This document shows, piece by piece, positions 6,255-31,427 of a stretch of 32,000 bases of DNA. Below the pieces are notes generated by a model. The model was not told the origin of the DNA. It worked only from the letters and a program-made list of their open reading frames with translations, and did not search any database. The stretch comes from Candidatus Saccharimonadota bacterium (GTDB lineage: Archaea > Micrarchaeota > Micrarchaeia > Micrarchaeales > Micrarchaeaceae). Every line of letters starts with the position of its first letter. Position 1 is the first letter of the stretch. The stretch spans positions 450,001-482,000 of the forward strand of contig AP024486.1 in assembly GCA_021654395.1 (NCBI GenBank), read 5' to 3'. A program made the translations under genes and the position numbers.

Positions 6255-6509
6255 CTATCTATCATTATCTGCTAGTATGAGTGCTGCTGGGCCTAGATTC
6301 ATATTCTTCTTCTTTGCTATCTTCTGCGCCTTTATTATGTACTCGGTAATCCTCTTCGCCACAATAACCTTTAAGGCCTCACTGCAGCTCTTTGATTCTT
6401 CTACGCCCAGCTCATTGAAGAGCTTTGCGAAGTCGTTCTCTGCTAGTAGCTCACGAGCTACTAACTCCAGTTTATCCTCTAACTCCTCTCTATCTTCTAC
6501 CACACCCAT
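6255..6509 (-). CDS. Small acidic/basic helical protein, function unknown.
   Basis: 84-aa ORF: MGVVEDREELEDKLELVARELLAENDFAKLFNELGVEESK...KAQKIAKKKNMNL. Its composition is balanced and protein-like, whereas the overlapping plus-strand ORF 6277-6561 is S/F-rich low complexity. The segment is visibly more G+C-rich than its flanks. Confidence 0.5.
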   Translation of the reverse strand: MGVVEDREELEDKLELVARELLAENDFAKLFNELGVEESKSCSEALKVIVAKRITEYIIKAQKIAKKKNMNLGPAALILADNDR

Positions 6510-6559: not shown

Positions 6560-6585
6560 AAAAAGTAATTTATAAATTACTTTTT
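6560..6585. terminator. Perfect 26-bp palindrome with flanking T/A runs. Candidate terminator hairpin after the TBP-domain gene.
   Basis: The sequence is aaaaagtaattta|taaattacttttt, and the two 13-nt halves are exact reverse complements. It overlaps the TAA stop (6585-6587) of the minus-strand gene and is followed by oligo-T on either strand. Confidence 0.4.
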
Positions 6586-6881
6586 TAAGAATTAGTCTTC
6601 CTTGCTGCCTTTAGAATCTTTATAGCCTCGGCAACAGCTCTTTCAAGCTCTTCCTTGCTCCTTGTCCCAGCGCAGATTATCTTACCTTGTTTAAATAGAA
6701 GCATTGCTGCCTTGGGATTCTCTATCTTTAGTATAGCTCCTGGGAACTGCTCCGGCTCATAATCTATGTTTCTAGAGTTAAGTGCAAGTGATATAAGATC
6801 TAGCTGCATTGGTACCTGAACGCTAGCTACTATATTAACAATCTTATATGTTGGCTTTATCTCCTTACTCATATTAATCAT
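6585..6881 (-). CDS. Single-repeat TBP-domain protein (half-size TATA-binding-protein homolog).
   Basis: The 98-aa product is IVNIVASVQVPMQLDLISLALNSRNIDYEPEQFPGAILKIENPKAAMLLFKQGKIICAGTRSKEELERAVAEAIKILK. This matches one archaeal TBP repeat (NIVAS ... LDL ... EY.PEQFPGL ... P. ... L.F.SGK.VCTGA.S.E). Only one repeat is present, and neither neighbouring gene supplies a second. Confidence 0.8.
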   Translation of the reverse strand: MINMSKEIKPTYKIVNIVASVQVPMQLDLISLALNSRNIDYEPEQFPGAILKIENPKAAMLLFKQGKIICAGTRSKEELERAVAEAIKILKAARKTNS

Positions 6882-6925
6882 TCTTATAAATATTTTAGAA
6901 GCAATAATTATTAATTCTTTTTAAT

Positions 6926-7561
6926 CTACTTTATACTAGCTTTAAACTGCTCTAGGCTTATTGTGTTTAACAGCTCATTCGGCTTATATAATCTATTAAA
7001 TTTAAGTATCTTATAGCTTAAGCCAGTATATGCATCTACAGCTATCTCTCTAAGCTCATTTCCAAATAGGTCGATCTCTACAATAGGCAGCTTCAGCTTA
7101 TTGTCTAATATATTATAAAGCTCTCTTATGTAGTCTGCCCCATAGTTATTCTGTAATCCGAATATCCTTATCTCAAATCTCTTCTTCTTTAACTTCAGCG
7201 ATCTTACAAATCTATTTAGCTCTGTATAGAAATTTATTAGATTCTCTGGCAATGCTCTTATACCAAAGAGAGATCTCGAGTTTATCTCATATAATGTTAA
7301 GAATATATCATAAGAGAGATCTAAAGCAGCTATATATCTCTTATCACTAACTCCTTTCTTAAAGTTAATGATCTCTTTCTTATCATTATAGCCTAGATAG
7401 TAAGTCTGTTCAAACTCATCTAGTATAGATTTAGAGATATGCAGTCTATCATTAAAGCCCGATGTGAGCTCTCTAAAGCTCATATACAACAGATTTTTAG
7501 ATAGGTTTTCATCTATCCTTCTCTGAAGCTCTCTATTCAGCTCTAGCTCTATAAGACCCAT
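6926..7561 (-). CDS. Hypothetical protein coupled to PolD. Weak resemblance to the CheD fold, without the catalytic Cys/His.
   Basis: 211-aa ORF starting 6 nt after the DP2 stop. The segments LDLSYDIFLTLYEINSRSLFGIRALP and FEIRIFGL...LPIVEIDLFGNELREIAVDAYTG line up, from my memory of CheD, with GLGSCV.V.LYD....G.AHVMLP and L.AK.AGGA...I.I..ED.GG...R.I.F...TG. The Cys and His positions are substituted. Confidence 0.6.
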   Translation of the reverse strand: MGLIELELNRELQRRIDENLSKNLLYMSFRELTSGFNDRLHISKSILDEFEQTYYLGYNDKKEIINFKKGVSDKRYIAALDLSYDIFLTLYEINSRSLFGIRALPENLINFYTELNRFVRSLKLKKKRFEIRIFGLQNNYGADYIRELYNILDNKLKLPIVEIDLFGNELREIAVDAYTGLSYKILKFNRLYKPNELLNTISLEQFKASIK

Positions 7562-7567
7562 ATTAGA

Positions 7568-10500
7568 TCACATAAATGCGGTAAGGTTAGTAGCTCCGCT
7601 ATAGCTACTACCAAATACTTCTTTTATCTCATATCTTATTAATCTTATTCTTTGCTTTATATAGTTATCTAAATTATACCTTTCTGCAAGCTTTTCAGCA
7701 GAGTCTAAGTACTTCTCTATGCTACCCCTTGAGATCGTGAGAGTTAGCTTTCCACCACATCTTTCACATACTCCTTTTATAGGAACTCTTCTGTACTTTG
7801 CATTGCATGTTGTGCATCTAAATCCTTGCTTAAAGTATGAATGAAGATTTCCTATAAGATCTGGTAAGAAGTGGCTTAATATAAGCTTTCTAGCTGCATC
7901 AGACTTATTAACACACTCTAGCTTATCTATTAAGCTGAACTCTGCCTCTATCTTCTCTTGCATACTCTTTAGTATAGTATACCTAGATCTCTTAGGGCTA
8001 CTGCTTATAACATTTATGCTTGATAGATGTGTAAAGTTTAGATTGTCATATACTGTCTCTTTACCTAATCTACTTCCAACCGTATCAAGCTGTAGATCTC
8101 CAGGCATCTTTCCTTCAAGAGTCGCTCTATAGAAATTTAGATCATAACATGATTGTACCTCCATCTCATGAACCTCGTCATCAACCTCCTCTGGATGTAC
8201 ATTAACAGTTAGTACTATAGGGGCATCCATAGTACCTCCTATAGTTGATGGAAGATAGTTTCTAGAGAAGTTTATAAGCGCATCTAGTAGAAGCATCATT
8301 GTATCCTCATCTCCATCGCAGTTTCTTCTTCTTGCTGATATAGTGTATGGGTGAGCAAGTATGGCATTAACATCCATATAGCCAACTATTCTATTCAGAA
8401 CTCCTGCAGATGTATGCGGAGATAATGTAATAACATACTGTCCAATAATATCCTCGCTGCTCTTTAGATTATAGAATCTCTCAAGGCCATAGTACTTCTC
8501 TAAGAGCTCATCTATATAGTTTGCTACATTATATAGAAATTCTAATGCTTTCTTAGGTATTATTATATCCTGATGCCTTAACTCTATAAGCTGATCATCT
8601 CTTTCTAATGGAGCTCCTTTATAGTCTGTAGTATATCCAAGCTGCCTCGCCTTCTCAACTGTTATCCCAACCTCTCTTGGATAGAAGTGAGTTATAGGTA
8701 CATCTGTTCCATCAAATCTAGCAGTTCCGTCCTTAAAGATATGTACATTATGCTTAGCTCTTAATATTCCTTTCTCTAATGGCTCTGGTATCTTATCAGC
8801 ATTAGTAAGCCCCTTAATTCCCTTTATAACTTCGATATTTGAGTGCTCATTTAGTCTATCTAAGGCTCTCTTATAGAGCTCTACTATATCAATCTCTCTC
8901 TTAGAATAAGCAACTGTCTCTGAGCCGCATCTAGGACAGATCTTGTCAACTGTCTTAATGCCGCACTTATTGCAAGATCTTTGAAGTACAGCTCTTACCT
9001 TATGCTTATCACAGTAAGGAGTAACTATAAGCTCTTTATCTATAGGGCATTCGTAGTTAGCTATTGTGAGCTCGATTCCTCTATTATCGAATCTCTTCTT
9101 TGCATTATTATAAGCCTTAACTACATTTCTCTCACTACCTCCATACAGCTCTAAAGGGAATAGAACGTGCGGAGGTGGCTTCATTAGCCTCTCTCTTGCC
9201 TTTTCTGGTCTTCCAATTCTAGCTCCTATTCTGCTAGATCTCTTCATGACCTTAAAAGGAGCGATCTTGTTTATAAGCTCAAGAGAGCTTTTTGCATCTA
9301 TACTTCTATAGCCATCAATCTTCTTAGGATCAACTACTATCTGCTCATTCTCTGAGAAGCCCAATGTAGCTAATAGGGCTTGGGCATCGTCATTCTCTAT
9401 AATAATATGGCTTATAAAGTCTCTATGCGGTATACAAAGCCTCTCTAGTATATGCCTTATCAGATCTACATTCTCTTTTATCTTTATAGACTCTACAGAG
9501 AATAAGCTACCATTATGCTTTATATCTGATCTGTATAGCGAATCGATAACTGCAATAAGATCGCTTACGCTTACATCTTGATACTCGTATATATACCTAG
9601 GATGCATTGGGATACCGTAGCTCTTTGAGATCTCATAAGCATCCTTAAATCTGTTCACTGATGGTATCTGATCTACACCCTTTGCTCTTAGCTCTGCCTC
9701 CCAGAACTCTTCAACGTAGCTGCTTTCTATAAGCTGCGTATTGGTTTTCTTAAAGTCTCCATAAGTTACTAGTATATCTCCTACAGATATTATCTTTTGA
9801 ACCATACTCTTATACTTGCGTGCCTCATCAGCAGTGTTAATCCTAAATGCTCTCCCATCAGTAAGCTTTACAAAAGGCCCCTCTATAGTATCTACAGGTA
9901 CTGCAACGCAGCCCTTTCCTGGTGTCTCTATCTTAAGCTGAGTTCCTACTGCTATAAAATCATCAAGCAGAATCATAGTAGCTGGATTAAAGCCTTTAGC
10001 TGCTATTCCTGTGAATCTTGATCTGCCATATCTCAATCTAAACGATCCACTCATCTTAGGATATGCTAAGACAGGTCTTCCAGCTACAAGCTCTGATAAG
10101 AATGTTGCTTCATTGCTCTCTCCTTCTTGCTTTGCCTTATCTACCTTTATAACCTTCTCTAACCAGCCCCAGTTTAGATTGAATGTATTAGCATACTTTA
10201 ATACGCTCTTTGCCTTCTGAGCGATTCCTTCGCATATAACTAATCCTATTCCGCTTCTTACCTTATTTGTTACTGTCTCCTCTGTATTGTCAAGCCTTAT
10301 CCTTTTAATATCTCTATGAACTCCAACCTCTATATCGTGAGATGCTATACTATCAACGCATACAGGACAGTTCTGTACTATTATTCTTATATGATCCTCT
10401 GGCGGCTTATACTGAAGTCTTGCAATTCTCTGATCATATAGCTCTATCTCCTCAATATACCTTTCAACCTCATTAGATGATGGCTTATATTCTCCAATAT

Positions 10501-10990
10501 TAAATACTCTTCTTAGATAATCTACCAAAACTACAGATAACGCAGCAGCAGTTCCACCAGCGCTTCTTATTGGACCAGCATATATTATAGAGGCATATGT
10601 TGTGTTATCTGGATTCTTATATATCTTTATTCCCTGCATACCTTCTGTAGGCGCTACTAGTACTCCATCTGTAAGTATAGCTAATCCTACCCTTACAGCT
10701 AATGTTAATGTTGCCTCTATACTATCTTGTTTAAATCTTTCATCTGTGCAGATGGCTTTAGCTACATCAAATGCTAATACTCTTGTAGGCTGTCCATGAG
10801 ATAGACTTCTTATAAGCTCTGCTACTCCTTTATAGCCAACTATTCCTTCTACTCTTGATGCTAGATCTGGTGCTTTAGAGATCTCAACATAAGGCTCTGG
10901 ATCATATCCTTTCTCTCTAGCTGCGCTAGCAACCTTATAAGCCTTATCAAACTCTTTATTCATTAGCTCTTCATACTCTTTAATATTCAT
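7568..10990 (-). CDS. polC: DNA polymerase II (PolD) large catalytic subunit DP2.
   Basis: The 1140-aa length is typical of an intein-free DP2. It has the N-terminal MN..EYE...EFDKAY..A...R.KGYDPE opening, several Zn-finger Cys clusters (CPVCV; CNKCG...CPRCG; CTTCN...CERCG) and the conserved SAGGTAAALSV and RRRNCDGDED segments. It overlaps the DP1 stop by 4 nt (ATGA). Confidence 0.95.
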   Translation of the reverse strand: MNIKEYEELMNKEFDKAYKVASAAREKGYDPEPYVEISKAPDLASRVEGIVGYKGVAELIRSLSHGQPTRVLAFDVAKAICTDERFKQDSIEATLTLAVRVGLAILTDGVLVAPTEGMQGIKIYKNPDNTTYASIIYAGPIRSAGGTAAALSVVLVDYLRRVFNIGEYKPSSNEVERYIEEIELYDQRIARLQYKPPEDHIRIIVQNCPVCVDSIASHDIEVGVHRDIKRIRLDNTEETVTNKVRSGIGLVICEGIAQKAKSVLKYANTFNLNWGWLEKVIKVDKAKQEGESNEATFLSELVAGRPVLAYPKMSGSFRLRYGRSRFTGIAAKGFNPATMILLDDFIAVGTQLKIETPGKGCVAVPVDTIEGPFVKLTDGRAFRINTADEARKYKSMVQKIISVGDILVTYGDFKKTNTQLIESSYVEEFWEAELRAKGVDQIPSVNRFKDAYEISKSYGIPMHPRYIYEYQDVSVSDLIAVIDSLYRSDIKHNGSLFSVESIKIKENVDLIRHILERLCIPHRDFISHIIIENDDAQALLATLGFSENEQIVVDPKKIDGYRSIDAKSSLELINKIAPFKVMKRSSRIGARIGRPEKARERLMKPPPHVLFPLELYGGSERNVVKAYNNAKKRFDNRGIELTIANYECPIDKELIVTPYCDKHKVRAVLQRSCNKCGIKTVDKICPRCGSETVAYSKREIDIVELYKRALDRLNEHSNIEVIKGIKGLTNADKIPEPLEKGILRAKHNVHIFKDGTARFDGTDVPITHFYPREVGITVEKARQLGYTTDYKGAPLERDDQLIELRHQDIIIPKKALEFLYNVANYIDELLEKYYGLERFYNLKSSEDIIGQYVITLSPHTSAGVLNRIVGYMDVNAILAHPYTISARRRNCDGDEDTMMLLLDALINFSRNYLPSTIGGTMDAPIVLTVNVHPEEVDDEVHEMEVQSCYDLNFYRATLEGKMPGDLQLDTVGSRLGKETVYDNLNFTHLSSINVISSSPKRSRYTILKSMQEKIEAEFSLIDKLECVNKSDAARKLILSHFLPDLIGNLHSYFKQGFRCTTCNAKYRRVPIKGVCERCGGKLTLTISRGSIEKYLDSAEKLAERYNLDNYIKQRIRLIRYEIKEVFGSSYSGATNLTAFM

Positions 10991-12486
10991 CTATACTCAC
11001 CACTAAAGTCCATAGATACGAGATTATTATTCTTTAATCCGTAGGCATAAAAGTTGCAAGGAGTTGGATTATGTCCTAGCTTTATCTGGTATATTGTCTT
11101 AGCCTGCCAAGTACCGCTATTTATAAGTATGCTTCCTTTATGCGTTGCAAAGTCATTCTTATGTATATGTCCTGTATGAAATATATCTGGATCTATCTCC
11201 ATTACTAGATTATCCTCAGCAGATGGTATAACAGGATTCATTCCATATACTGGAGATAGATGCCTCTTTCTTAATAGCTGCAGCATTACCTCTGCTGGCT
11301 TATCATAGCTAAGCCCTGGTATAGACTTAATCATGGAGTCTATAGATGCGCCATGGTATCCAACAAGATTAAACTTATGTACGCTTATATACATAGGATT
11401 TGGTAGTATAGATATATTATCTGCAGCATTCTTAAACTCTCTTATTATGTCTTCTGGTAATGGTGGCTGCGGCTCAGCTAAAGCTACAGCATCATGATTT
11501 CCAGGTGCTAGGAATATATGTATGTAATCCGGTACATCTGAAAGCAGATCAAACAGATATCTATACTGAAGATATATATCTGCTATACTAAGCTCTCTTT
11601 CTTGCTCAGGGTATACCCCTATTCCATCTACTAGATCTCCTGAGATTACGAGATACTTTATCTTGCCGCTTATGCTATTTTCGTCCTTGCTATTCAACCA
11701 ACTCAAGAATGCTCTAAAGTTCTTCTCTAAGAATAGCTTGCTACCTACATGTATATCTGATAAAAATCCTATATAGATATCATCTTCTGATCTCTTATTC
11801 TTAACTGATGTATCTGGGAAGTATATATTACTGACTAAGAGCAGATCCTTCGAGATGAGCTTTCCCTTAACAGCTATTACCTCATCATTTACAAGATATC
11901 TCGCATCCTTCTCTAGCTCAGTATTCCCTCTATTCATCGGTATAATAGCATTTATAGAGCCAGTTTCATCCTCAATAGTTATTGTTATATTGCCGTTCTT
12001 TGTATCTCTCTTATCTCTTATTATGCCAGCAGTTACAAATGTTCTTCCAGATGCGTAGTTATCTATGCTATTTATATTTACTAGCTCATTTCTTATCTCT
12101 AAGTTATTTCTAAGGATCTTATCTCTAATCTTAAATAGTCTGCTTCTAAAGTAGCTTACAAAGTCATTTGCTGTTGCATTACAGTAGCTATCCTTTGTAT
12201 TGTAGATCTTATACTCTGCCTCTATCTCGCTTGCCTCTGCTCTATAGCTCTTATTTAAGACCTCTACTCTCTCTGGCTTTGAGCTCTTTATAGATTCTAT
12301 TATGCTTGATAGCTTATTCTTATCTAGTACTACTAAGCCTTTCTCATCCTTATACTGCTTTACTATATAAGCGGTAAGAAGCTCAATATCTACATCGCTG
12401 ATTAGCTCTGTAGCATCCTTCTTTATAATTATATTCGGTGCGATATCTCTTAATCTGTTAAGTAGCTCTGTAGCTGCCTCGTTCAT
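10987..12486 (-). CDS. polB: DNA polymerase II (PolD) small exonuclease subunit DP1.
   Basis: 499 aa. An OB-fold-like middle region is followed by calcineurin-type phosphoesterase motifs: FLSDIHVGS, ISGDLVDGIGVYP, APGNHD and FHTGHIH. Confidence 0.93.
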   Translation of the reverse strand: MNEAATELLNRLRDIAPNIIIKKDATELISDVDIELLTAYIVKQYKDEKGLVVLDKNKLSSIIESIKSSKPERVEVLNKSYRAEASEIEAEYKIYNTKDSYCNATANDFVSYFRSRLFKIRDKILRNNLEIRNELVNINSIDNYASGRTFVTAGIIRDKRDTKNGNITITIEDETGSINAIIPMNRGNTELEKDARYLVNDEVIAVKGKLISKDLLLVSNIYFPDTSVKNKRSEDDIYIGFLSDIHVGSKLFLEKNFRAFLSWLNSKDENSISGKIKYLVISGDLVDGIGVYPEQERELSIADIYLQYRYLFDLLSDVPDYIHIFLAPGNHDAVALAEPQPPLPEDIIREFKNAADNISILPNPMYISVHKFNLVGYHGASIDSMIKSIPGLSYDKPAEVMLQLLRKRHLSPVYGMNPVIPSAEDNLVMEIDPDIFHTGHIHKNDFATHKGSILINSGTWQAKTIYQIKLGHNPTPCNFYAYGLKNNNLVSMDFSGEYR

Positions 12487-12488
12487 TC

Positions 12489-12776
12489 TTACTTAACTTT
12501 TATTGATTCTAATATAGACAGTATATTCCATATTAGAGTTCTCTCTTGCTGCGGTATATTTATATCATTGCTTACAGAGTCTAGATCATATATTACTGAA
12601 GATATCTTTATATCTAAAGAGTCTTTGCTATTAAGAAGTCTATCCTTTGCGTTAGATATAGTTGCCCTTATGCTTCTAGGCACTTTCATATCATTTATAA
12701 GAAAGTCCATCTGCTTAACAGCCTGCTCTATAAGACTATTAATCTCACTGCTTGATCTTCTAGGCATTCTAATCAC
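12489..12776 (-). CDS. UPF0147-family small helical protein.
   Basis: 95 aa with the motif order MKVPRSIRATISNAKDRL ... DLDSVSNDINIPQQERTLIWNILSILE. This resembles the VPRNIRR ... DPN.P...RT.IW signature as I remember it. The gene sits 2 nt upstream of DP1. Confidence 0.55.
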   Translation of the reverse strand: MIRMPRRSSSEINSLIEQAVKQMDFLINDMKVPRSIRATISNAKDRLLNSKDSLDIKISSVIYDLDSVSNDINIPQQERTLIWNILSILESIKVK

Positions 12777-12789
12777 CCAATAAGTAGCT

Positions 12790-12813
12790 AATTAAGTAAC
12801 TAATTACTTAATT
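12790..12813. promoter_or_regulatory. 10-bp perfect inverted repeat (aattaagtaa ctaa ttacttaatt) within a pair of TAAGTA(G/A)CTAAT direct repeats.
   Basis: It lies between the stop of the VIT1-like gene (12865) and the start of the UPF0147/PolD operon (12776). It could be a terminator hairpin or an operator. Confidence 0.3.
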
Positions 12814-14864: not shown

Positions 14865-15965
14865 ATGACAGCGTATAATGATAGCTATAAGGTAATGAGT
14901 AAGTTTGAGAGCGATATAAAAGATCTATTTGATGATGCCCCTTTTGTTATAGGTATTGTTCATAGGCAGGATCTTGACGGTGTAGGCTCAGGGGCGATGA
15001 TAGAGAAGGTATGTGAAAGATTTAACAAGAGATCTATTATACTCTACTCCAACTACGATAGAGAAGATGCAGAGAGGTTGTATAATCAGCTATCAGATGC
15101 TATAAAGAGATATGGCATATACAAGTTCTTGGCCATAGTATCAGATATAAGCATAAATGAGCAAGCAGTAGACCTATATAAGAAGGTATTTGAGCTTATA
15201 GAGGCAAGTAATGGAAAGCTAGTTTTCTTAGATCATCATGCATTTAGCGAGAGAGTTGTAGAGATACTGAATCGCTATGCAGATATCTATATAATAGGGG
15301 ATGATCCAGAGAATACTGGAGCGACTCTTACTTATAGAGAGTTTGCTAGAAAGCTGATAGGCTTTGATAAGGCATTATTCAAGATATATGCCATCGCGCT
15401 AGCTACCGATCTAGGCCTATTTACTGTAAAGGAGACAGAGTCATTTGATACCTTATATAAAGTTATAAGCTATGCGAATGATATAGTAGGTGTAGAGAAT
15501 AAAGATGAGGCAGATAGGATATTAGATAAAGTAAAAGATCTGCTTAAGAGCGGCAGTAGCGTAAACGATAATAAAGAGCTATTAGAGATTACTGAAAGGT
15601 ATAAGAGGGAAGAGGAGAAGATACTTAATGATATAATTAGTAAGTCAATCTATATAGAGAAGGGCAGATATAAGGTAGCTGTCGCCACAAGTTTAGGTAA
15701 GTATGATCTAGATGCCTCAGTAGTATGCGACACACTAAAGCTAAAGTATCCAGAGTCCAACCTTAGAGTGTATATAAAGAATGCAGGGCAGGTTAGATTA
15801 AGATCAAATGGAGATATAGACTGCGCTAGAATATCTAAGGCTTTTGGTGGCAATGGTCATATTGGTGCAGCAGGGTTTGTATTAAAAGATATAGATAAGA
15901 ATAATATTGATGCTATAAATGATCTAATAGATCGTATTATAAGTATAGCCGATAAGCTTAATTAA
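14865..15965 (+). CDS. DHH/DHHA1-family phosphoesterase (RecJ/NrnA-like).
   Basis: Motifs seen: HRQDLDGVGSG (the DxD-G motif), FLDHHAF (the DHH motif) and the DHHA1 motif GGNGHIGAAGF. Confidence 0.8.
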   Translation: MTAYNDSYKVMSKFESDIKDLFDDAPFVIGIVHRQDLDGVGSGAMIEKVCERFNKRSIILYSNYDREDAERLYNQLSDAIKRYGIYKFLAIVSDISINEQAVDLYKKVFELIEASNGKLVFLDHHAFSERVVEILNRYADIYIIGDDPENTGATLTYREFARKLIGFDKALFKIYAIALATDLGLFTVKETESFDTLYKVISYANDIVGVENKDEADRILDKVKDLLKSGSSVNDNKELLEITERYKREEEKILNDIISKSIYIEKGRYKVAVATSLGKYDLDASVVCDTLKLKYPESNLRVYIKNAGQVRLRSNGDIDCARISKAFGGNGHIGAAGFVLKDIDKNNIDAINDLIDRIISIADKLN

Positions 15966-16627
15966 AATAGTTTCTTCTGCTTCTCATCCTCTATTCTTTT
16001 ATAAGTGTACCACTCTTTTCTTATAAAGCGCTTTAGAAGATCCTTTTTACTCTTAAGTGCCTCTATCGCTTTAGGATCTGATGGATATCCTGATCCTATA
16101 TCTACCTTGTATCTGCTTTTAATGCTTTCTATTATAAAATCTCTATTAACCTTTGCAACTATACTAGCAGCAGATACAACCTTAAAATCTCTATCAGCGA
16201 AGTGCTTGGCTATTATCTTATCCTCTGAGATCTTTACATCTAACTTATTCAGTATATTTAAGATCCTTCTTGAGAAGCTTCTCTCCTCTGTATCTGGAGA
16301 GTCTATAATAAACTTATCCACAAACTGGTTAAATCTTAAGATATAATTTGCAATAAAATCTGCTTCGAGCTGATTTAGCGAGTATCTCCTTTTAATAGCA
16401 TTATCTATTGTTGATGGACTTATCTCCACAAAATCGTATATAGAAGCTCTACTTATTATCATACTATTTGCAATCTCTCTAGAACGAGGCGATAGCGTCT
16501 TAGAGTCTCTTATTATAGAATTACTCTCTAGATAATCTAGATCAGACTCATAGAATGCTACAAAGCCGATGACAAGAGGCCCAAAGATCGCGCCTCTGCC
16601 GGCTTCATCGAAGCCAGCAATAAGCAT
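15962..16627 (-). CDS. rnhB: Ribonuclease HII.
   Basis: N-terminal GFDEAGRGAIFGPLVIG, followed by DSKTLS, IIDSPD and SIVAKVNRD. Confidence 0.92.
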   Translation of the reverse strand: MLIAGFDEAGRGAIFGPLVIGFVAFYESDLDYLESNSIIRDSKTLSPRSREIANSMIISRASIYDFVEISPSTIDNAIKRRYSLNQLEADFIANYILRFNQFVDKFIIDSPDTEERSFSRRILNILNKLDVKISEDKIIAKHFADRDFKVVSAASIVAKVNRDFIIESIKSRYKVDIGSGYPSDPKAIEALKSKKDLLKRFIRKEWYTYKRIEDEKQKKLF

Positions 16628-17372: not shown

Positions 17373-17470
17373 TCGTCTTCACCTAAATAATTATTTAATA
17401 GATAGATAATTTAATAAAAGTGTATATCAATCTTTATTATAAAGTCTTTAGTATATATAAAGTAGTTTAT

Positions 17471-18289
17471 ATGAAAGATAATAATAGAAAGAGTCAGATA
17501 CTTATTAGATATGTAGTATCAATAGTATTCATAGCAGCTATCTATATTATAGCATATATATACTTATCTAGCAAGCCTAAATACAACAGTAGCTTATATA
17601 CAACAGTATACACAACATATACAACTATACCGAATAGCTCAAGCAGTCAAGACAATAGCACTATTGTTATAACAGTAAACAGCTTAAATATATCTCGTTA
17701 TAACTTTAGCTTTAATATATCAAGATACGAAGAAGATAAGAAAGCGTTATTGAATGTCTCCGTATACAATAGATTTAATCAGTCTATAGGAGTAGATGCA
17801 TATCTATATAATCCATCGAACACTACAGTAATATTATATAGAAATATGAGCATAATAACAGATATAGTCAGTAATACAAGCTTTATAAATAATGAGTATC
17901 CATGTAGCTACAATAGCTTTATTATAGCTATAGCACTCTATAAAGGGATATATAACGTAACGCAGCTTTACAATAAAAGTCCCTTACTATTATATAAGCC
18001 ATTTATCGTTACCTGCCCTCTAATAACAGGTAATGCCTCGCCTGTCTATCTATTTAGTAGATCAAGTAATATATCTATATACTATAGCTCAGCGCAGAGC
18101 ACAGATCATGTCTATAATACAACGTCTAAGACCTCTTATATTATAAGTAGCTACTGGATATATGCAAATAATACATATAAACAAGAGCCGCTTAATGGAA
18201 GTTATACTCTGCTTATAGTTTCACCGTATACAAGCAGCTATGATATTATACATATCCATGCGAAAAGGCAGATGCTAAGCTATAATTAA
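17471..18289 (+). CDS. N-terminally anchored, sequon-rich surface protein (paralog 1).
   Basis: I prefer the ATG at 17471 (MKDNNRKSQ...) over the track GTG at 17420. It has one N-terminal TM helix, many N-X-S/T sites, and a shared C-terminal LNGSYTLLIVSPY motif with the next gene. Confidence 0.75.
   Translation: MKDNNRKSQILIRYVVSIVFIAAIYIIAYIYLSSKPKYNSSLYTTVYTTYTTIPNSSSSQDNSTIVITVNSLNISRYNFSFNISRYEEDKKALLNVSVYNRFNQSIGVDAYLYNPSNTTVILYRNMSIITDIVSNTSFINNEYPCSYNSFIIAIALYKGIYNVTQLYNKSPLLLYKPFIVTCPLITGNASPVYLFSRSSNISIYYSSAQSTDHVYNTTSKTSYIISSYWIYANNTYKQEPLNGSYTLLIVSPYTSSYDIIHIHAKRQMLSYN
17798..17905 (+). repeat. 108-nt near-identical patch shared with 18640-18747 (copy 1).
   Basis: The patch gcatatctatataatccatcGaacactacag...aatgagtatccatgt differs from copy 2 at a single synonymous position, 17818 G versus 18660 A. 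Confidence 0.9.
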
Positions 18290-18372: not shown

Positions 18373-19140
18373 ATGGTATCTGATAAGCAGAGTAGGCATT
18401 ATATGCCTTTATATCTAATATTGGTATTGGCTTTAATAGTACTGATACTATACTATATAGAATCTAGTCCTAATGTTAAGTATTCAAATAGTGGCGGATT
18501 ATACTCAAATAACCAAAGCCTAAATAATAGCGTTAACTCAAGCTACAATAACAAGACAGAGCTAATAAATGAATCTAAGCGCTCAGTCATTTTATATGCG
18601 AACATTACAGAGCTAAAGAATAATACATTTAAGCTCACTGCATATCTATATAATCCATCAAACACTACAGTAATATTATATAGAAATATGAGCATAATAA
18701 CAGATATAGTCAGTAATACAAGCTTTATAAATAATGAGTATCCATGTGATTTAAATCTATTTCCTATAGTAGTAGCGCTATTTAAAGGCAACTATAGCAT
18801 ATCTCAGCTATATAATAAAACACCATTGCTTATAGAGCCACCCCCACCACCTTATCTACTCTGCCCTGTATCAATACTATCTAGAGTAAGCTATGTAAGT
18901 ATGCCGGCTAGATCAACAGATATAGAAGTAAATACAACTCTTACACCAACCTCGCAAAGACTAAACTATAGCGAGAATACTAAGACAACCTTTTACATAT
19001 CTGAATACTTTTCACCGCAATCTACAAGTAATTTAACCAGCTCACAGTACTATCGCGCATATAAGCTTAATGGAAGCTATACCATACTTGTTGCCTCTCC
19101 TTATGTAAAAGATTATAGAGTATTCCATATTAAGGCATAG
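18373..19140 (+). CDS. N-terminally anchored, sequon-rich surface protein (paralog 2).
   Basis: 255 aa with the TM helix MPLYLILVLALIVLILYYI. It shares the identical 36-aa block AYLYNPSNTTVILYRNMSIITDIVSNTSFINNEYPC and the C-terminal LNGSYTILVASPY with paralog 1. Confidence 0.8.
   Translation: MVSDKQSRHYMPLYLILVLALIVLILYYIESSPNVKYSNSGGLYSNNQSLNNSVNSSYNNKTELINESKRSVILYANITELKNNTFKLTAYLYNPSNTTVILYRNMSIITDIVSNTSFINNEYPCDLNLFPIVVALFKGNYSISQLYNKTPLLIEPPPPPYLLCPVSILSRVSYVSMPARSTDIEVNTTLTPTSQRLNYSENTKTTFYISEYFSPQSTSNLTSSQYYRAYKLNGSYTILVASPYVKDYRVFHIKA
18640..18747 (+). repeat. 108-nt near-identical patch shared with 17798-17905 (copy 2).
   Basis: See copy 1. The flanking sequence of the two genes is much more diverged. 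Confidence 0.9.
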
Positions 19141-26709: not shown

Positions 26710-28062
26710 ATGGACAACCAAGATAAGAGTAGCTTAGACTCTTCAGAAGTAAAGACTCAGATAGATGCGTTATATCAGCTAATAAAAGATAGAGGAAAGA
26801 TAGATAATCTAACTGCAGCAGCAATACTTAAAGCAAGCCCAGATATAGTTGATAAGTGGGCCGAGGTGCTGTATAACAACAAGCTAATAAGGATTACCTA
26901 TGAGATGGGCAAGACTCTATATCAAACAGTAGAAGCTGACAAGAAAGAAGATAAGGCAGAGATATCTACAAAGATAGATACTCTATCTAATCAGATAAAT
27001 GCAGCATTAGTACAGATAGATGCTTATATAAAGGACTTATCTAAGCTTGAGACAAATACTGCAGAGCTTAACAAGAAGTATAAGTCATCTCTACCAACAT
27101 TCTACAAGGAGCTCAGCGGTATAAATAGAATCTATATGAAGATAACATCCTACTCTAAGAAGATAGAACAGTATGAGAGCAGGATAGAGAAGCTTATAGA
27201 AGATGTAGAGAAGAGAAAGAACCAGTTAAGCGATTCATTATTTAAGCTTTCATCAATAGATATGACATCAAAGATAGCAGATGCAGACTCTAGAATAGAT
27301 AAGATAAGGGCAGAGCTGGAAGAGCTAGATAAGGAGTACGCGAATCTGCTAGTAGAGAAGAGAAATTCATTAAAGAGCATAAAAGAAGAGCTAGAGAAAG
27401 ATATAAAGAGTATATATAAAGATCTAGATAAGAGGTCAGTAGACATAGAGACAAAGGTAAAGGATTCAAAGAAGGATCTTGATAAGCTTTTACTAGATTT
27501 TAAATCTACAGTAGAGTATATAAAGAATAGTAAGAGAGAGCTTAATAAAGATTCTAAAGAGGTGGACAAGCTTATAAAAGATGTTACAGACTCATTTAGT
27601 AAGTTTGAGGGATTATACAAAGATGCATTAAATAATATAAACAAGGAGATAGAGGACTTTAATCAATCCTTTAATAAGCTTGTAGAGAATATTAGATCTG
27701 TAAAGTCAGAGTTTGGCAGAATAGGAGATATCGATACAAAGCTTAATGAGACTATAATGCAAGTAAATGATATAAAATCAGATTTAGATACATTAAAGAA
27801 CGATATACAAAAGTCAAGTAGAGATCTAAGAAAGATAAAGCTTACCATAGAGTCTCTAGATTCAAAGTCTAAGAAAGATAAGAAGCAGAACATAGATCTT
27901 AATGATATTAAAGATAAGATAGATAGAATAAGCGAAGGCGTAGATAAGGATCTAGAAGAGCTTAATAATGTGTATATGAGAATAGGTAAGATATCTCAAG
28001 CAATAGGAGATATAATACAGGAGATAAAAGAGGGCAATAAAAATAAATCTAACAAGTCTTAG
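26710..28062 (+). CDS. Putative N-terminal winged-helix-like domain plus a ~370-aa coiled-coil protein. First gene of the type IV filament operon; function unknown.
   Basis: 450 aa. The N-terminus IDALYQLIKDRGKIDNLTAAAILKASPDIVDKWAEVLYNNKLIRITY looks wHTH-like. The rest is K/D/E/I/L/S-rich with heptad-like periodicity. No TM segment. Confidence 0.75.
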   Translation: MDNQDKSSLDSSEVKTQIDALYQLIKDRGKIDNLTAAAILKASPDIVDKWAEVLYNNKLIRITYEMGKTLYQTVEADKKEDKAEISTKIDTLSNQINAALVQIDAYIKDLSKLETNTAELNKKYKSSLPTFYKELSGINRIYMKITSYSKKIEQYESRIEKLIEDVEKRKNQLSDSLFKLSSIDMTSKIADADSRIDKIRAELEELDKEYANLLVEKRNSLKSIKEELEKDIKSIYKDLDKRSVDIETKVKDSKKDLDKLLLDFKSTVEYIKNSKRELNKDSKEVDKLIKDVTDSFSKFEGLYKDALNNINKEIEDFNQSFNKLVENIRSVKSEFGRIGDIDTKLNETIMQVNDIKSDLDTLKNDIQKSSRDLRKIKLTIESLDSKSKKDKKQNIDLNDIKDKIDRISEGVDKDLEELNNVYMRIGKISQAIGDIIQEIKEGNKNKSNKS

Positions 28063-28075
28063 CTAGATAAAGCTG

Positions 28076-29572
28076 ATGCTCATGGCTGAGAAGATATTAG
28101 AGGAGTATAATCTAGATGTAAATGCACTTGCTGTAAATATAAAGATAGTGGATAGAGATGAGTTTGTACCATCATACATAGCAACTACTGTAGGAATAAG
28201 CGATATAACAAAGCTTTTAATAAATTCATGGAGGAATGAGCTAGTAGAGCTTGTTCCAATAGATATAATGCGCCTTCAGGATAAAGAGTATATAAAAGAG
28301 CTAAATAACAGATACGAGCAGGAGACAAATCTGCTTATAGATAAGTATCTACCACACACAGATGATAAAACAAGATCACTAATAGTTGCATATGTAAGAA
28401 ATATGATGGTTGGCCTTGGAGAGCTAGAGATCGTTCTTGCGGATGAGAACCTAGAAGAGGTAACAGTAAATGGACCAAAGAAGCCAGTATGGGTATTTCA
28501 TAAGAGATATGGTTGGTGCAAGACAAATATAATAATGGAGTCTGATGAGCAGATATATGAGTACTCGGAGAAGATAGGAAGAAATGTTGGAAGAGAGATA
28601 AATAATCTGCAGCCTTTAATGGATGCAGAGCTATTAGATGGTTCTAGAGTTAATGCTACTCTATTTCCCGTATCACAAAGTGGTAATACAATAACAATAA
28701 GAAAGTTCTCTAAGAATCCTTGGACTATGCCTGCTTTAATAAAGGCCAAGTCATTAACTCCAGAGCTAGCAGGTCTTATATGGCTATGTATACAGAATGA
28801 GATAAGCCTTATAATAGCTGGAGGTACAGCGTCAGGAAAGACAAGCTTCTTAAATGCGATGAGTATATTCTTTCCTCCAAATAGAAGAATAATATCTGCT
28901 GAAGAGACAAGAGAGCTAGAGCTACCAAACTTCTTCCAATGGGTAGCTATGCTTACTAGGCAGCCGAATCCAGAGGGTAAGGGAGAGATAAAGCTTTATG
29001 ATCTATTGATAAACTCATTAAGACAGAGACCAGATATAATACTAGTAGGAGAGGTTAGAACAAAGAGCGATGCAGAGGTAATGTTTGAGGCTATACACAC
29101 AGGCCATTCAGTATATGGAACAGTTCACGCAGATAATGCACAAGACTTTATAATAAGAATGACAAATCCTCCTATAGATATATCAAAGGTTACATTAAAT
29201 GCTCTAGGGGGAGTTATAGTAAACTTTAGGCATAGATCAAAAGGAATAAGAAGGGTATTAGAGTTTGCAGAGGTTACACAGAGCGGAGATGCAAGCGTAT
29301 TATATAGATGGGATGTTAACTTAGATACACAGATAAAGATCTCTGAGATGTCTAGGCTTAACGATACACTAAAGCTTTATAGCGGAATGAGCGATAAAGA
29401 GATAGTAGATGATGTGCAAGAGAAGGCTAAAGTGCTGCAATGGATGGTTAAGAATAATGTTGTAGATGTAGATAGCAGCGGATTAGTTATAGCAAACTAC
29501 TATAAGAATAAAGATAAGGTTATGCAGATAGTTAATGATGATGTTAAGTATACACCAGATCTATTTAAGTGA
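28076..29572 (+). CDS. Type IV filament assembly ATPase (FlaI/PilB/TadA, GspE superfamily).
   Basis: Motifs seen: GLGELEIVLADENLEEVTVNG, LLDGSRVNA, Walker A AGGTASGKTS, ETRELELP, Walker B PDIILVGEVR and His box TGHSVYGTVHA. Confidence 0.92.
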   Translation: MLMAEKILEEYNLDVNALAVNIKIVDRDEFVPSYIATTVGISDITKLLINSWRNELVELVPIDIMRLQDKEYIKELNNRYEQETNLLIDKYLPHTDDKTRSLIVAYVRNMMVGLGELEIVLADENLEEVTVNGPKKPVWVFHKRYGWCKTNIIMESDEQIYEYSEKIGRNVGREINNLQPLMDAELLDGSRVNATLFPVSQSGNTITIRKFSKNPWTMPALIKAKSLTPELAGLIWLCIQNEISLIIAGGTASGKTSFLNAMSIFFPPNRRIISAEETRELELPNFFQWVAMLTRQPNPEGKGEIKLYDLLINSLRQRPDIILVGEVRTKSDAEVMFEAIHTGHSVYGTVHADNAQDFIIRMTNPPIDISKVTLNALGGVIVNFRHRSKGIRRVLEFAEVTQSGDASVLYRWDVNLDTQIKISEMSRLNDTLKLYSGMSDKEIVDDVQEKAKVLQWMVKNNVVDVDSSGLVIANYYKNKDKVMQIVNDDVKYTPDLFK

Positions 29573-30558
29573 TTATATTGAATGAAGATATAATAGAGAT
29601 CCTGAAGGAGCTAGATAAGGAGAGAGCTCAGAAGCAGGTTAATGATTATCTAGATCTATCAACAAGCTCTATAGAGAGCAAAAGTGAGCAAGATTTTAAT
29701 AAGCTTCAGGATCTTGTATTAGCTATAGTTCAAAAGACAGATACAAGAAAGAAGATAGAGCAGTCTCAGAAGCAGAAGACTAATATCAAAGAGCAATCAG
29801 AGGAGCAGCAGAAGCAGCAGATAGAGGTAAAGCAACAGCAGATACCAGAAGCAAGTAGAAGCAGCGAGGAGATTAAACAGAAAGAAGAAGCTAATAAAGA
29901 GGTTATAACTAGCTCTAAGCAAGAGGAAGTTAATAAAGAAGCTCAAAGCATTACTAAGCAAGAAGAGGTCAAGAAAGAGCAAAAGAAGATAAGTATATTC
30001 GGCATTAAAAAGAAGGAGAAGCAGAAGATTGAGCAACCGCAAGAGAGTAAGCAGATTGAAGAACAGAAGCATCTAGAAGAGCAGAAGGTAAAAGCAGCTG
30101 CAGCTACTCAGCAAGCCGCTCATTTAAATCTTGAATCGCCTGTTGAGGTAATAGATAAGCAGATAGCAGAGTCTAAAGAGATCAGTAATGAGAGCATTGA
30201 AAAAGAAGAGGAGAAGATTAATACTACACAGACAGCGAAGCAGATAAAGATAAATATTAATCAGGATCTCTATCTACCAAAGATGAGCCTAGCAGATATG
30301 CTAACAGAGCTAGAGAATATAGAGTACCTCTTAAATCATAATGTATTAGATAAAAGCACTTTAAGTATAATAGTAATAGAGGTATACGGGCTATCATTTG
30401 CAATTAGTAGATGTGGCTCTATAAAGATCGATCAGGATAACTTAGCTGAAAGAATATTATATAATAAGCTAACTACTAAGCTGAGTGATATTATAAATCT
30501 ATTAAGCAGTATGGGATACTCTCCTAATGTAGAGCTTAGTGTGGTATATACATGCTAA
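29569..30558 (+). CDS. E/K/Q-rich, apparently disordered protein with a small C-terminal globular domain. Function unknown; embedded between the ATPase and the platform genes.
   Basis: 329 aa. It has a GTG start overlapping the ATPase stop (GTGA), and its stop overlaps the next gene's start (ATGCTAA). Residues ~60-200 are low complexity (KQEEVNKEA / KQEEVKKEQ-type imperfect repeats). The C-terminal ~100 aa are of ordinary composition. Confidence 0.7.
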   Translation: MIILNEDIIEILKELDKERAQKQVNDYLDLSTSSIESKSEQDFNKLQDLVLAIVQKTDTRKKIEQSQKQKTNIKEQSEEQQKQQIEVKQQQIPEASRSSEEIKQKEEANKEVITSSKQEEVNKEAQSITKQEEVKKEQKKISIFGIKKKEKQKIEQPQESKQIEEQKHLEEQKVKAAAATQQAAHLNLESPVEVIDKQIAESKEISNESIEKEEEKINTTQTAKQIKININQDLYLPKMSLADMLTELENIEYLLNHNVLDKSTLSIIVIEVYGLSFAISRCGSIKIDQDNLAERILYNKLTTKLSDIINLLSSMGYSPNVELSVVYTC

Positions 30559-31427
30559 CAGATAAGGCAGCTCAAGGTCAAGCTAAGAGCCAGAGTAAGT
30601 TCCAGCAGAGATTAGCGAGAATGGCTCGTAAGAAGCATATAGACGAAAATGTACTTAGAAAGCATAGGATTAACTCCACACCAGAGCAGTTCATATTCAA
30701 GGTCTTAATGCTCTCTATAATATTAGCTATAGCTATAGCAGTATTCATGTTTATACTATTTTATATAAGAGGATTTGCTTTACCGATATCTGCTCTAGTC
30801 TCTTTAGTTATAGGGTTTGTTGTACAGACAATCTTCTATAATATGATGACTAACTTCCCAGCAACGAAAGGCAAAAAATCAGCTAGAAATGCAGAGAGAG
30901 ATATGATCTTCGCAGCTAGAGACATAATAATATCTCTGCGTTCAGGCTCTCCTCTATTTAATGCTATAGTATATGTAAGCAACGGCTATGGCGATGCGAG
31001 CGAGGAGTTTAGAAGGATAGTTGAGAAGGTTCAAGTTGGAGTACCATTAGTAGATGCTATAGATAGAACTATTGAGGAGAGTAAGGTACCATCATTTAAG
31101 AAGATCATGCTTCAGGCGGCAGTTGCAATAAAGAGTGGATCAGAGGTAACTACAGCATTATCTTCGATAATACAGCAGATAGAGGAAGAGAGATATATAC
31201 AGCTTAAGGCTTACGCGCAGAAGCTGAATGTTCTATCTATGTTCTATATGCTATTCGGTGTTATATTTCCATCTATGGGTCTTGCCTTAGCGATAATATT
31301 AACAACATTTATATCTATTATAACAATAAATGCTACAATATTAGAGGTTGTTATAGTATTTGTTATTGCTGTGCAGGTTGTATTCCTACAGATGTTAAGA
31401 ACATCAAGACCTGCATTTACAACGTGA
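30552..31427 (+). CDS. Type IV filament platform protein with a single T2SSF domain (TadB/TadC- or EpdJ/K-like), copy 1.
   Basis: 291 aa. The cytoplasmic helical domain AERDMIFAARDIIISLRSGSPLFNAIVYV...EEFRRIVEKVQVGVPLVDAI is flanked by TM helices. Confidence 0.85.
   Translation: MLTDKAAQGQAKSQSKFQQRLARMARKKHIDENVLRKHRINSTPEQFIFKVLMLSIILAIAIAVFMFILFYIRGFALPISALVSLVIGFVVQTIFYNMMTNFPATKGKKSARNAERDMIFAARDIIISLRSGSPLFNAIVYVSNGYGDASEEFRRIVEKVQVGVPLVDAIDRTIEESKVPSFKKIMLQAAVAIKSGSEVTTALSSIIQQIEEERYIQLKAYAQKLNVLSMFYMLFGVIFPSMGLALAIILTTFISIITINATILEVVIVFVIAVQVVFLQMLRTSRPAFTT

Follow-up and report, generated by a model that had tools for sequence, protein, structure and literature searches.

Can a protein that amounts to half of a TATA-binding protein (TBP) serve a cell as its only TBP? 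This question is raised by a gene located at positions 6585–6881 on the reverse strand of a 32-kb stretch of archaeal DNA, to which we refer as the window and which belongs to the genome of Microcaldus variisymbioticus ARM-1 (Micrarchaeota, DPANN), a closed circle of 814,439 bp (AP024486). TBP is a textbook pseudo-symmetric protein and is thought to have descended from a homodimer, and we know of no organism that relies on a TBP with one repeat. The ARM-1 gene encodes exactly one TBP repeat, and, judging from its sequence and from its relatives, we consider it probable that its product is the sole TBP of this archaeon and acts as a homodimer. ARM-1 is a thermoacidophilic DPANN symbiont that is grown together with Metallosphaera sp. 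AS-7, and its genome was obtained by hybrid assembly of PacBio and Illumina data (PMC8784108). Microcaldus is the name-giving genus of the phylum Microcaldota, previously Micrarchaeota.

The open reading frame (ORF) list, Pfam and phmmer all bear on the definition of the gene, which encodes 98 amino acids when read from the ATG at 6881 and 95 amino acids when read from a second in-frame ATG 9 nucleotides further on, at 6872; the NCBI product BCS91027.1, named ‘TATA-box-binding protein’, starts at the second of these codons. In Logan, where the Illumina run DRR248898 was assembled separately, the gene and its neighbours appear in exactly the same form, so that, with a closed hybrid genome and an identical separate assembly, an assembly artefact is ruled out. 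It is practically certain that the ARM-1 one-repeat gene is real and functional.

The protein has a single match to the TBP family PF00352, which extends over residues 12–92 and over profile positions 2–84 of 85 (E 4e-27; 94.3 bits against a gathering cutoff of 22.9). In phmmer searches against the PDB, the whole ARM-1 protein aligns once with the N and once with the C repeat of the TBPs of M. jannaschii (E 6e-38) and P. woesei, and its identity with each of the two repeats of archaeal TBPs is ~45–50%. The NCBIfam TBP models are matched over half of their length only, the N half in some and the C half in others, and the whole-protein cutoff is missed, the best score of 87.9 bits being about one third of the required 270. 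The AlphaFold2 model, which was built from a 32-sequence alignment and has a mean predicted local distance difference test score (pLDDT) of 85.8, displays the order of elements S1-H1-S2-S3-S4-S5-H2 and in Foldseek superposes on a single repeat of solved TBPs with a root-mean-square deviation (rmsd) of 0.7–0.9 Å over 78 columns. At E ≤ 1e-4 the model matches 44 solved TBP chains, and the next fold class, the OGG1 glycosylase, appears only at E > 0.1.

The residues through which TBP deforms DNA are retained. F46 (in EQFPG), F63 (in LLF) and N16 of strand S1 (in NIVAS) are present in the ARM-1 protein and invariant in the 32-member alignment; we take the two phenylalanines to be the equivalents of the yeast TBP kinking pair F99/F116 or F190/F207, and N16 to be that of the groove asparagine N69/N159. 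The DNA-kinking phenylalanine pair and the minor-groove asparagine that characterize each repeat of a canonical TBP are thus found here, and the two tandem repeats in one polypeptide, which are equally characteristic, are not. At its C-terminus the ARM-1 protein carries the basic tail KAARKTNS, and K/R-rich tails occur across the one-repeat family. According to the family alignment, these proteins have Lys/Arg-rich tails at both the N- and the C-terminus and a near-invariant K-P-T-Y motif just before S1; on this evidence the tails and the motif are candidates for extra DNA contacts or for elements of a dimer interface.

A second repeat was sought with a profile made from one-repeat homologs, which was run with the HMMER filters off over all stop-to-stop segments in the six frames of the window. 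The ARM-1 ORF was recovered at E 1e-44, and no second TBP repeat was present in any frame of the 32 kb, the next match having an E value of ~1 or worse. The two ORFs that flank the gene, of 211 amino acids (6926–7561) and of 84 amino acids (6255–6509), have no match in Pfam or NCBIfam, and hhalign gives them a probability of 0.5% against the one-repeat family. A second repeat nearby is ruled out by the six-frame hidden Markov model (HMM) search and by Pfam, NCBIfam and hhalign on both neighbours. A preliminary description of this locus, made from the sequence, had proposed a genuine stand-alone single TBP repeat with its hallmark motifs intact, both kinking phenylalanines included, and with no second repeat encoded in the neighbouring genes. 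All of this holds: there is one PF00352 domain, phmmer relates it to both repeats, the phenylalanines of EQFPG and LLF do not vary among the 32 family members, and the neighbours are unrelated. The frameshift or assembly break joining the gene to a second repeat, which the same description had named as its possible undoing, is not there, since the genome is closed and the Illumina-only assembly is identical.

One-repeat genes at the resident TBP locus

The gene is a member of a large family: one-repeat TBPs of 90–120 amino acids number in the hundreds in Micrarchaeota. A protein search returned 829 relatives, for the best 120 of which sizes and names were counted; in addition, species-representative genomes were scanned, and the best 80 loci of at least 600 matches were analysed by ORF and HMM. 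It is to these two samples that the counts below refer. Proteins of 94–129 amino acids with one repeat make up 98 of the best 120 relatives. The named carriers are assigned to Micrarchaeota, Micrarchaeales, Micrarchaeaceae, metagenome-assembled genomes (MAGs) labelled ‘Marsarchaeota’, ARMAN-1 and ARMAN-2 (EET90338.1), and they include Ca. Micrarchaeum harzensis A_DKE, whose one-repeat TBP QRF74309.1 is encoded in a complete genome of 989,838 bp (CP060530). The annotation of these proteins is inconsistent, either as ‘TATA-box-binding protein’ or as ‘hypothetical protein’. One repeat is present in ~41 and two repeats are present in ~40 of the best 80 loci, and both kinds come from genomes labelled Micrarchaeota; a few one-repeat genes are found in Iainarchaeota, and the two-repeat carriers that have names, Anstonellaceae P0007 and Bilamarchaeaceae L039, are Anstonellales.

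Among the one-repeat proteins, which are ~50% identical overall, 26 alignment columns do not vary. Between related pairs of their genes, the ratio of nonsynonymous to synonymous substitution rates (dN/dS, Nei-Gojobori) is 0.05–0.27 with synonymous sites at or near saturation, and because of this the one-repeat genes are seen to be under strong purifying selection and functional.

In many relatives the TBP gene lies ~100 bp from a divergent L21e gene and beside the genes for RpoF/Rpb4, DUF655 and KsgA. Neighbour clustering identified this arrangement at 19 one-repeat and 28 two-repeat loci, and the precomputed Pfam assignments of the Ca. M. harzensis genome (PF01157, PF04919, PF03874) reveal the same one, with RpoA close by. 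Since the L21e-RpoF-DUF655-KsgA neighbours are the same as those of the two-repeat genes, the one-repeat gene of these relatives stands at the locus of the resident TBP, and the one-repeat family is very likely orthologous to TBP.

The two forms also do not accompany each other. A one-repeat gene and a two-repeat gene were found together in none of the ~38 assemblies that have a one-repeat locus among the best 80, and a second one-repeat gene was found in none of the ~37 Micrarchaeota assemblies in this sample, Iainarchaeum AUK171 being the only assembly with two loci. Because the best-80 range easily includes the two AUK171 copies as well as two-repeat TBPs from sister lineages, any conserved second TBP of the ~37 Micrarchaeota assemblies would probably have come to light. 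Among the best 120 of the 829 relatives, no two proteins are encoded on one long contig. The supplements of the cryo-electron tomography paper, in which we sought to count the TBP genes of complete Micrarchaeota genomes, yielded no TBP entry.

Three cases deserve a separate description. The AUK171 assembly (JAGGYF01) contains two one-repeat genes that are 66% identical and lie on separate contigs of similar GC content: one (L045, 9989–10258) is situated at the L21e-RpoF-DUF655-KsgA locus and the other (L026, 10007–10279) elsewhere, where the gene that comes after it encodes a product starting with the P-loop GSPGTGKT, possibly a KaiC/RadA-like ATPase. The pair may be due to a natural split of TBP or to mixing of genomes in the bin. 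In the second case (L061, 9950–10646), a two-repeat TBP gene has a frameshift inside the C repeat, which results in overlapping ORFs of 207 and 95 amino acids; this is either a co-assembly error or a gene caught decaying towards the one-repeat form. The third (L081, DATJLP010000005.1) is a Micrarchaeota-type one-repeat TBP in a MAG labelled Candidatus Acidoferrum (Acidobacteriota), a placement that is probably due to a binning error.

A probable homodimer and its alternatives

Clamping a TATA box takes a whole saddle, and a homodimer is the simplest working model for a TBP with one repeat. We infer that the ARM-1 protein homodimerises, that it binds the TATA box and TFB, and that it is the only TBP of ARM-1, whose general transcription factor TBP would then exist in a reduced, one-repeat form. 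Two identical subunits would pair via their S1 strands and H2 helices into a ten-stranded saddle such as that of tandem-repeat TBP, and the dimer would bind and bend the TATA box with two phenylalanine pairs, F46 and F63 of each subunit, i.e., with four wedges in two identical stirrups. The polarity of the promoter would in this case be set entirely by TFB reading the B recognition element (BRE). The repeats of archaeal TBPs are nearly symmetric, and Bell and colleagues are said to have found in 1999 that the orientation of the archaeal pre-initiation complex is set by the interaction of the BRE with TFB; with near-symmetric archaeal TBPs and polarity in the hands of TFB and the BRE, a perfectly symmetric TBP should be tolerable. 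The preliminary description had left the choice between a homodimer and an extra paralog open. Positional orthology, the lack of co-occurring two-repeat genes, a signature intermediate between N and C repeats (see below) and purifying selection favour the former.

Several observations weigh against this reading. A threonine that contacts the groove, present in ~90% of the one-repeat family, is replaced by alanine in ARM-1 (A71); alanine is, however, the consensus at this position in DPANN two-repeat TBPs, namely in their C repeats. That second copies are absent was seen in the best 80 loci and in incomplete MAGs and is not exhaustive, and a second TBP gene, with one or two repeats, may lie in the remaining 782 kb of the ARM-1 genome. 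The ARM-1 gene is not at the L21e locus and follows PolD instead, and its product sits on a long branch that joins other one-repeat clades at 22–24% bootstrap in a neighbour-joining (NJ) tree (22% for the ARMAN clade). As the gene is off the L21e locus and its branch is weakly supported, its orthology with the resident TBP is a matter of extension from the relatives. Lastly, the two one-repeat genes of the related lineage Iainarchaeum AUK171 suggest that a heterodimer solution exists in nature.

How the one-repeat state came about can be approached by comparing the one-repeat proteins with the two halves of ordinary TBPs, for which one HMM was made from the N repeats and another from the C repeats of two-repeat loci (38 each). 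The difference between the N and C scores averages +13 bits for N repeats and −14.5 bits for C repeats, and one-repeat proteins range from −8 to +5, with ARM-1 at +0.7. Column- and block-wise log-odds in clades A and C reveal a weak N lean in the N-terminal blocks and a C lean in the C-terminal blocks; the signal is small, and such a gradient is the pattern that would be expected from a chimeric deletion product. The NJ tree of the repeats (95 columns, 200 bootstraps) resolves shallow clades only, among them four one-repeat clades at 88, 96, 100 and 100%, and supports no deep nodes. The phylogenetic placement against N and C repeats that the preliminary description had called for resolves the shallow one-repeat clades only, and the attempt to sort the ARM-1 repeat as N-derived or C-derived ended in intermediate scores, a weak N-to-C gradient and weak deep nodes.

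In the two-repeat TBPs of DPANN, the two repeats are remarkably similar to each other, with 41–69% identity, as compared with 54% in M. jannaschii and 41% in P. woesei in the same alignment. Such high similarity would favour unequal recombination between the repeats. The N and C repeats of loci L025, L042, L041, L077, L050 and others are 60–69% identical, and those of L042/L077 cluster together (51% bootstrap), which suggests gene conversion or recent re-duplication of a one-repeat gene. The one-repeat state is common to a large part of Micrarchaeota; its most likely origin is the loss of one repeat through a deletion in a two-repeat gene, possibly through unequal recombination between repeats that were already very similar.

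The first of the alternatives to a homodimer is that TBP is split, i.e., that a second one-repeat gene resides elsewhere in the genome and the two products heterodimerise like a normal TBP cut in two. AUK171, with its 66%-identical genes on separate contigs, one of them at the L21e locus, provides a possible precedent, split genes are generally known to be common in DPANN, and only a 32-kb window of the ARM-1 genome was searched. We nevertheless consider this arrangement unlikely. A second one-repeat gene is missing from all of the ~37 Micrarchaeota assemblies among the best 80 loci, although the AUK171 copies score well inside this sample, and the one-repeat proteins do not fall into N-type and C-type classes, all of them being intermediate. 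Furthermore, the best 120 relatives include no entry of the ARM-1 genome other than the gene itself, and this speaks against a recent duplication.

Alternatively, a two-repeat TBP encoded elsewhere could do the promoter work, with the half-protein being dispensable or regulatory in the manner of the halobacterial TbpA; it may then be, e.g., a TBP modulator or a factor tied to the adjacent replication genes. TbpA and the monopartite proteins of Thermococcales both coexist with a full-length TBP (PMC3597702), and the place of the ARM-1 gene after PolD, not at L21e, would suit such a role. The adjacency to PolD, however, is not conserved, the one-repeat gene of relatives stands at the canonical TBP locus, both forms occur together in no assembly among the best 80 loci, and the retention of all DNA-contact motifs at a dN/dS of 0.05–0.27 fits an essential factor. 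An accessory role is in our opinion quite unlikely.

A further alternative concerns the origin of the gene and not its mechanism: the one-repeat gene may descend directly from the homodimeric ancestor that preceded the TBP duplication. Its sequence is equidistant from N and C repeats, the deep branches of the repeat tree lack resolution, and the identity of up to 69% between DPANN repeats, together with the clustering of N and C repeats in one lineage at 51% bootstrap, fits recent lineage-specific duplications. Against this stand at least four separately supported one-repeat clades and scattered single cases, which are interleaved with two-repeat forms, as well as the weak N-then-C gradient, which fits a deletion product, and the reductive evolution that is typical of DPANN. 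To our knowledge, all other archaea and all eukaryotes have a TBP with two repeats. Because of this universality, and because sister orders within the phylum carry two-repeat genes at the same locus (two repeats in Anstonellales, one in Micrarchaeales), the one-repeat state is more likely a secondary reduction than an ancestral relic, and we regard direct descent as very unlikely. The preliminary description had likened the homodimer to the presumed ancestral symmetric TBP; that the gene is itself ancestral is not supported, given the nesting of the one-repeat genes among DPANN lineages that have a two-repeat TBP at the same locus.

Finally, that the gene is a truncated remnant produced by frameshift, misassembly or recent decay is scarcely credible: nothing of the kind was found for ARM-1, and, the frameshifted two-repeat gene of one related locus (L061) notwithstanding, the hybrid genome is closed and independently reproduced, no TBP-like sequence follows the stop codon in any frame, and the family is conserved under purifying selection.

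Surroundings of the gene in the window

Upstream of the TBP gene, on the same strand, lie the genes for UPF0147 (PF03685) and for the small subunit DP1 (PF04042/PF00149) and the large subunit DP2 (PF03833/PF24844/PF24846) of PolD, which together occupy positions 7568–12776. The 211-amino-acid ORF, for which no homolog was found in the 80 related loci, separates DP2 from the TBP gene, and the 84-amino-acid ORF follows the TBP gene downstream, both likewise on the reverse strand. UPF0147, DP1, DP2, the 211-amino-acid ORF and TBP form a tightly packed same-strand string, which may be one operon. Between the 211-amino-acid ORF and the TBP start there is an AT-rich spacer of 44 nucleotides (6882–6925, reverse strand), in which a reading of the sequence finds AAAAAGA followed by ATTAATAATTA, centred ~26 nucleotides upstream of the ATG at 6881. 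The ATTAATAATTA element may be the TBP gene's own promoter, from which a leaderless mRNA would begin at the first ATG.

At the other end of the gene, a perfect 26-bp palindrome (6560–6585; two arms of 13, AAAAAGTAATTTA/TAAATTACTTTTT) abuts the stop codon and overlaps the last base of the TAA. No other perfect palindrome in the window is as long; on the coding strand its centre is TTTATAAA and its end is a run of five T. As an RNA hairpin it has a folding energy of −7.2 kcal/mol (z −1.4), and 19 of 200 shuffled sequences fold as well, which makes it a weak candidate for an RNA terminator hairpin. The palindrome may function as a terminator or as a binding site for a protein, or it may be the promoter from which the 84-amino-acid ORF is transcribed. 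A second palindrome, AAGTAA-N4-TTACTT (12794–12809), precedes the start of UPF0147 by 18 nucleotides, at the opposite end of the string. Half-sites AAGTAA and TTACTT are common to both palindromes, spaced by 8 nucleotides within the first (6563–6582) and by 4 nucleotides within the second, and two such matches were found in place of the 0.08 expected by shuffling. The two palindromes bracket the same-strand string from UPF0147 to TBP, and as a pair they could be regulator sites or boundary elements of an operon.

The gene for RNase HII (15962–16627) is 9 kb from the TBP gene, and four genes intervene between it and the UPF0147-PolD string. DP2 is located ~6.5 kb upstream in 3 of ~40 one-repeat loci (clade C), and RNase HII is within 9 kb in 1 locus only. 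A functional link to PolD or RNase HII as a conserved feature is rejected, as the adjacency is not kept and most relatives have L21e in this place. The preliminary description had placed the TBP gene directly after the PolD operon, near RNase HII, and had pointed to the TBP-like domain of bacterial RNase HIII; the clean TAA followed by a palindrome, which it also described, is there as stated, the palindrome sharing the last stop base. It is true that the DP1 and DP2 genes are located upstream and share the strand of the TBP gene, from which the 211-amino-acid ORF separates them. The significance attached to the proximity of PolD and RNase HII is lost with PolD being loosely near in 3 of ~40 loci and RNase HII being 9 kb away, and a link to RNase HIII likewise finds no support at this distance and with a proximity that is not conserved.

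Two more regions of the window attracted our attention. Adjacent paralogous ORFs at 17420–18289 (289 amino acids) and 18373–19140 (255 amino acids) are rich in Asn, Ser and Thr and contain many N-x-S/T sequons. Each has an N-terminal hydrophobic segment, and the two share an identical stretch of ~39 amino acids, YLYNPSNTTVILYRNMSIITDIVSNTSFINNEYPC, and identical inverted repeats in their DNA. The 289-amino-acid paralog, which was the ORF of the pair that was scanned, has no Pfam family. The pair probably represents the duplication of a surface glycoprotein of the symbiont. A cluster at 26710–31427 resembles a type-IV-pilus or archaellum assembly system: it holds a 450-amino-acid coiled-coil protein, a FlaI-like ATPase (263 bits, below the equivalog cutoff of 550 bits), a Glu/Lys/Gln-rich low-complexity protein of 329 amino acids and a weakly FlaJ-like membrane protein. 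This cluster may be relevant to attachment to the host.

Significance and comparison with known systems

We see an even chance that much of Micrarchaeota/Microcaldota, including ARM-1 and Ca. Micrarchaeum harzensis, initiates all of its transcription with a symmetric homodimeric one-repeat TBP and leaves polarity wholly to TFB and the BRE, with DPANN perhaps switching repeatedly between one-repeat, split and two-repeat forms through loss by recombination of near-identical repeats and regain by re-duplication. If this is true, a living, perfectly symmetric TBP is available, and the duplication that founded TBP becomes an experimentally reversible step. The cultured ARM-1 and Ca. M. harzensis would then allow directional transcription by a symmetric TBP to be tested, and the choice of side by TFB and the purpose of the N/C asymmetry of normal TBP would become testable as well. 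Being a conserved trait of cultured organisms, the one-repeat state makes the hypothesis of the homodimeric origin of TBP accessible to experiment. There is also a practical consequence: cutoffs based on length or on equivalogs would call TBP missing or partial in one-repeat genomes. One comparative study of DPANN simply counts TBP as present, and in full-text literature searches no TBP of DPANN turned up that was described as one-repeat or homodimeric.

Among the known systems closest to the ARM-1 protein are the canonical archaeal TBPs (M. jannaschii 2Z8U, P. woesei 1AIS/1PCZ, S. acidocaldarius 1MP9). The fold of the repeat is alike (rmsd 0.7–1.6 Å), the YEPEQFPG stirrup, both intercalating phenylalanines and the asparagine of S1 are the same, and the one-repeat gene of relatives is at the L21e-RpoF-DUF655 locus, as is the canonical gene. 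However, a canonical archaeal TBP has two repeats in ~180–190 amino acids, whereas the ARM-1 protein has one repeat in 95–98. With one repeat per polypeptide, the saddle in ARM-1 would have to be intermolecular and perfectly symmetric.

Single TBP-domain proteins of two kinds have already been described in archaea, in a work in which ARMAN and Micrarchaeota are not mentioned (Brindefalk et al. 2013, PMC3597702). The first kind is the halobacterial TbpA of Halobacterium NRC-1 and its relatives, which exists beside full-length TBPs and is reported to be functional but not essential (PMC3597702). Like the ARM-1 protein, TbpA is a stand-alone single repeat that is close to the repeats of full-length TBP and clusters with them (PMC3597702). 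Unlike TbpA, the Micrarchaeota one-repeat gene is phylum-wide, occupies the canonical locus in relatives and has no two-repeat partner among the best 80 loci. The second kind, the monopartite proteins of Thermococcales (P. furiosus NP_578195), are ~82–136 and mostly 91–97 amino acids long and coexist with a normal TBP (PMC3597702). These are also archaeal proteins with one TBP-like domain, but they are highly diverged and form a sequence cluster of their own (PMC3597702), whereas the ARM-1 protein is ~50% identical to TBP repeats. Outside of archaea, the N-terminal TBP-like domain of bacterial RNase HIII has a single TBP-domain fold, as does the ARM-1 protein, and no sequence relationship between the two was detected. 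By its sequence, which is close to that of TBP, and by the apparent replacement of TBP at its own locus in relatives, the ARM-1 protein sets itself apart from both known classes of single-domain proteins.

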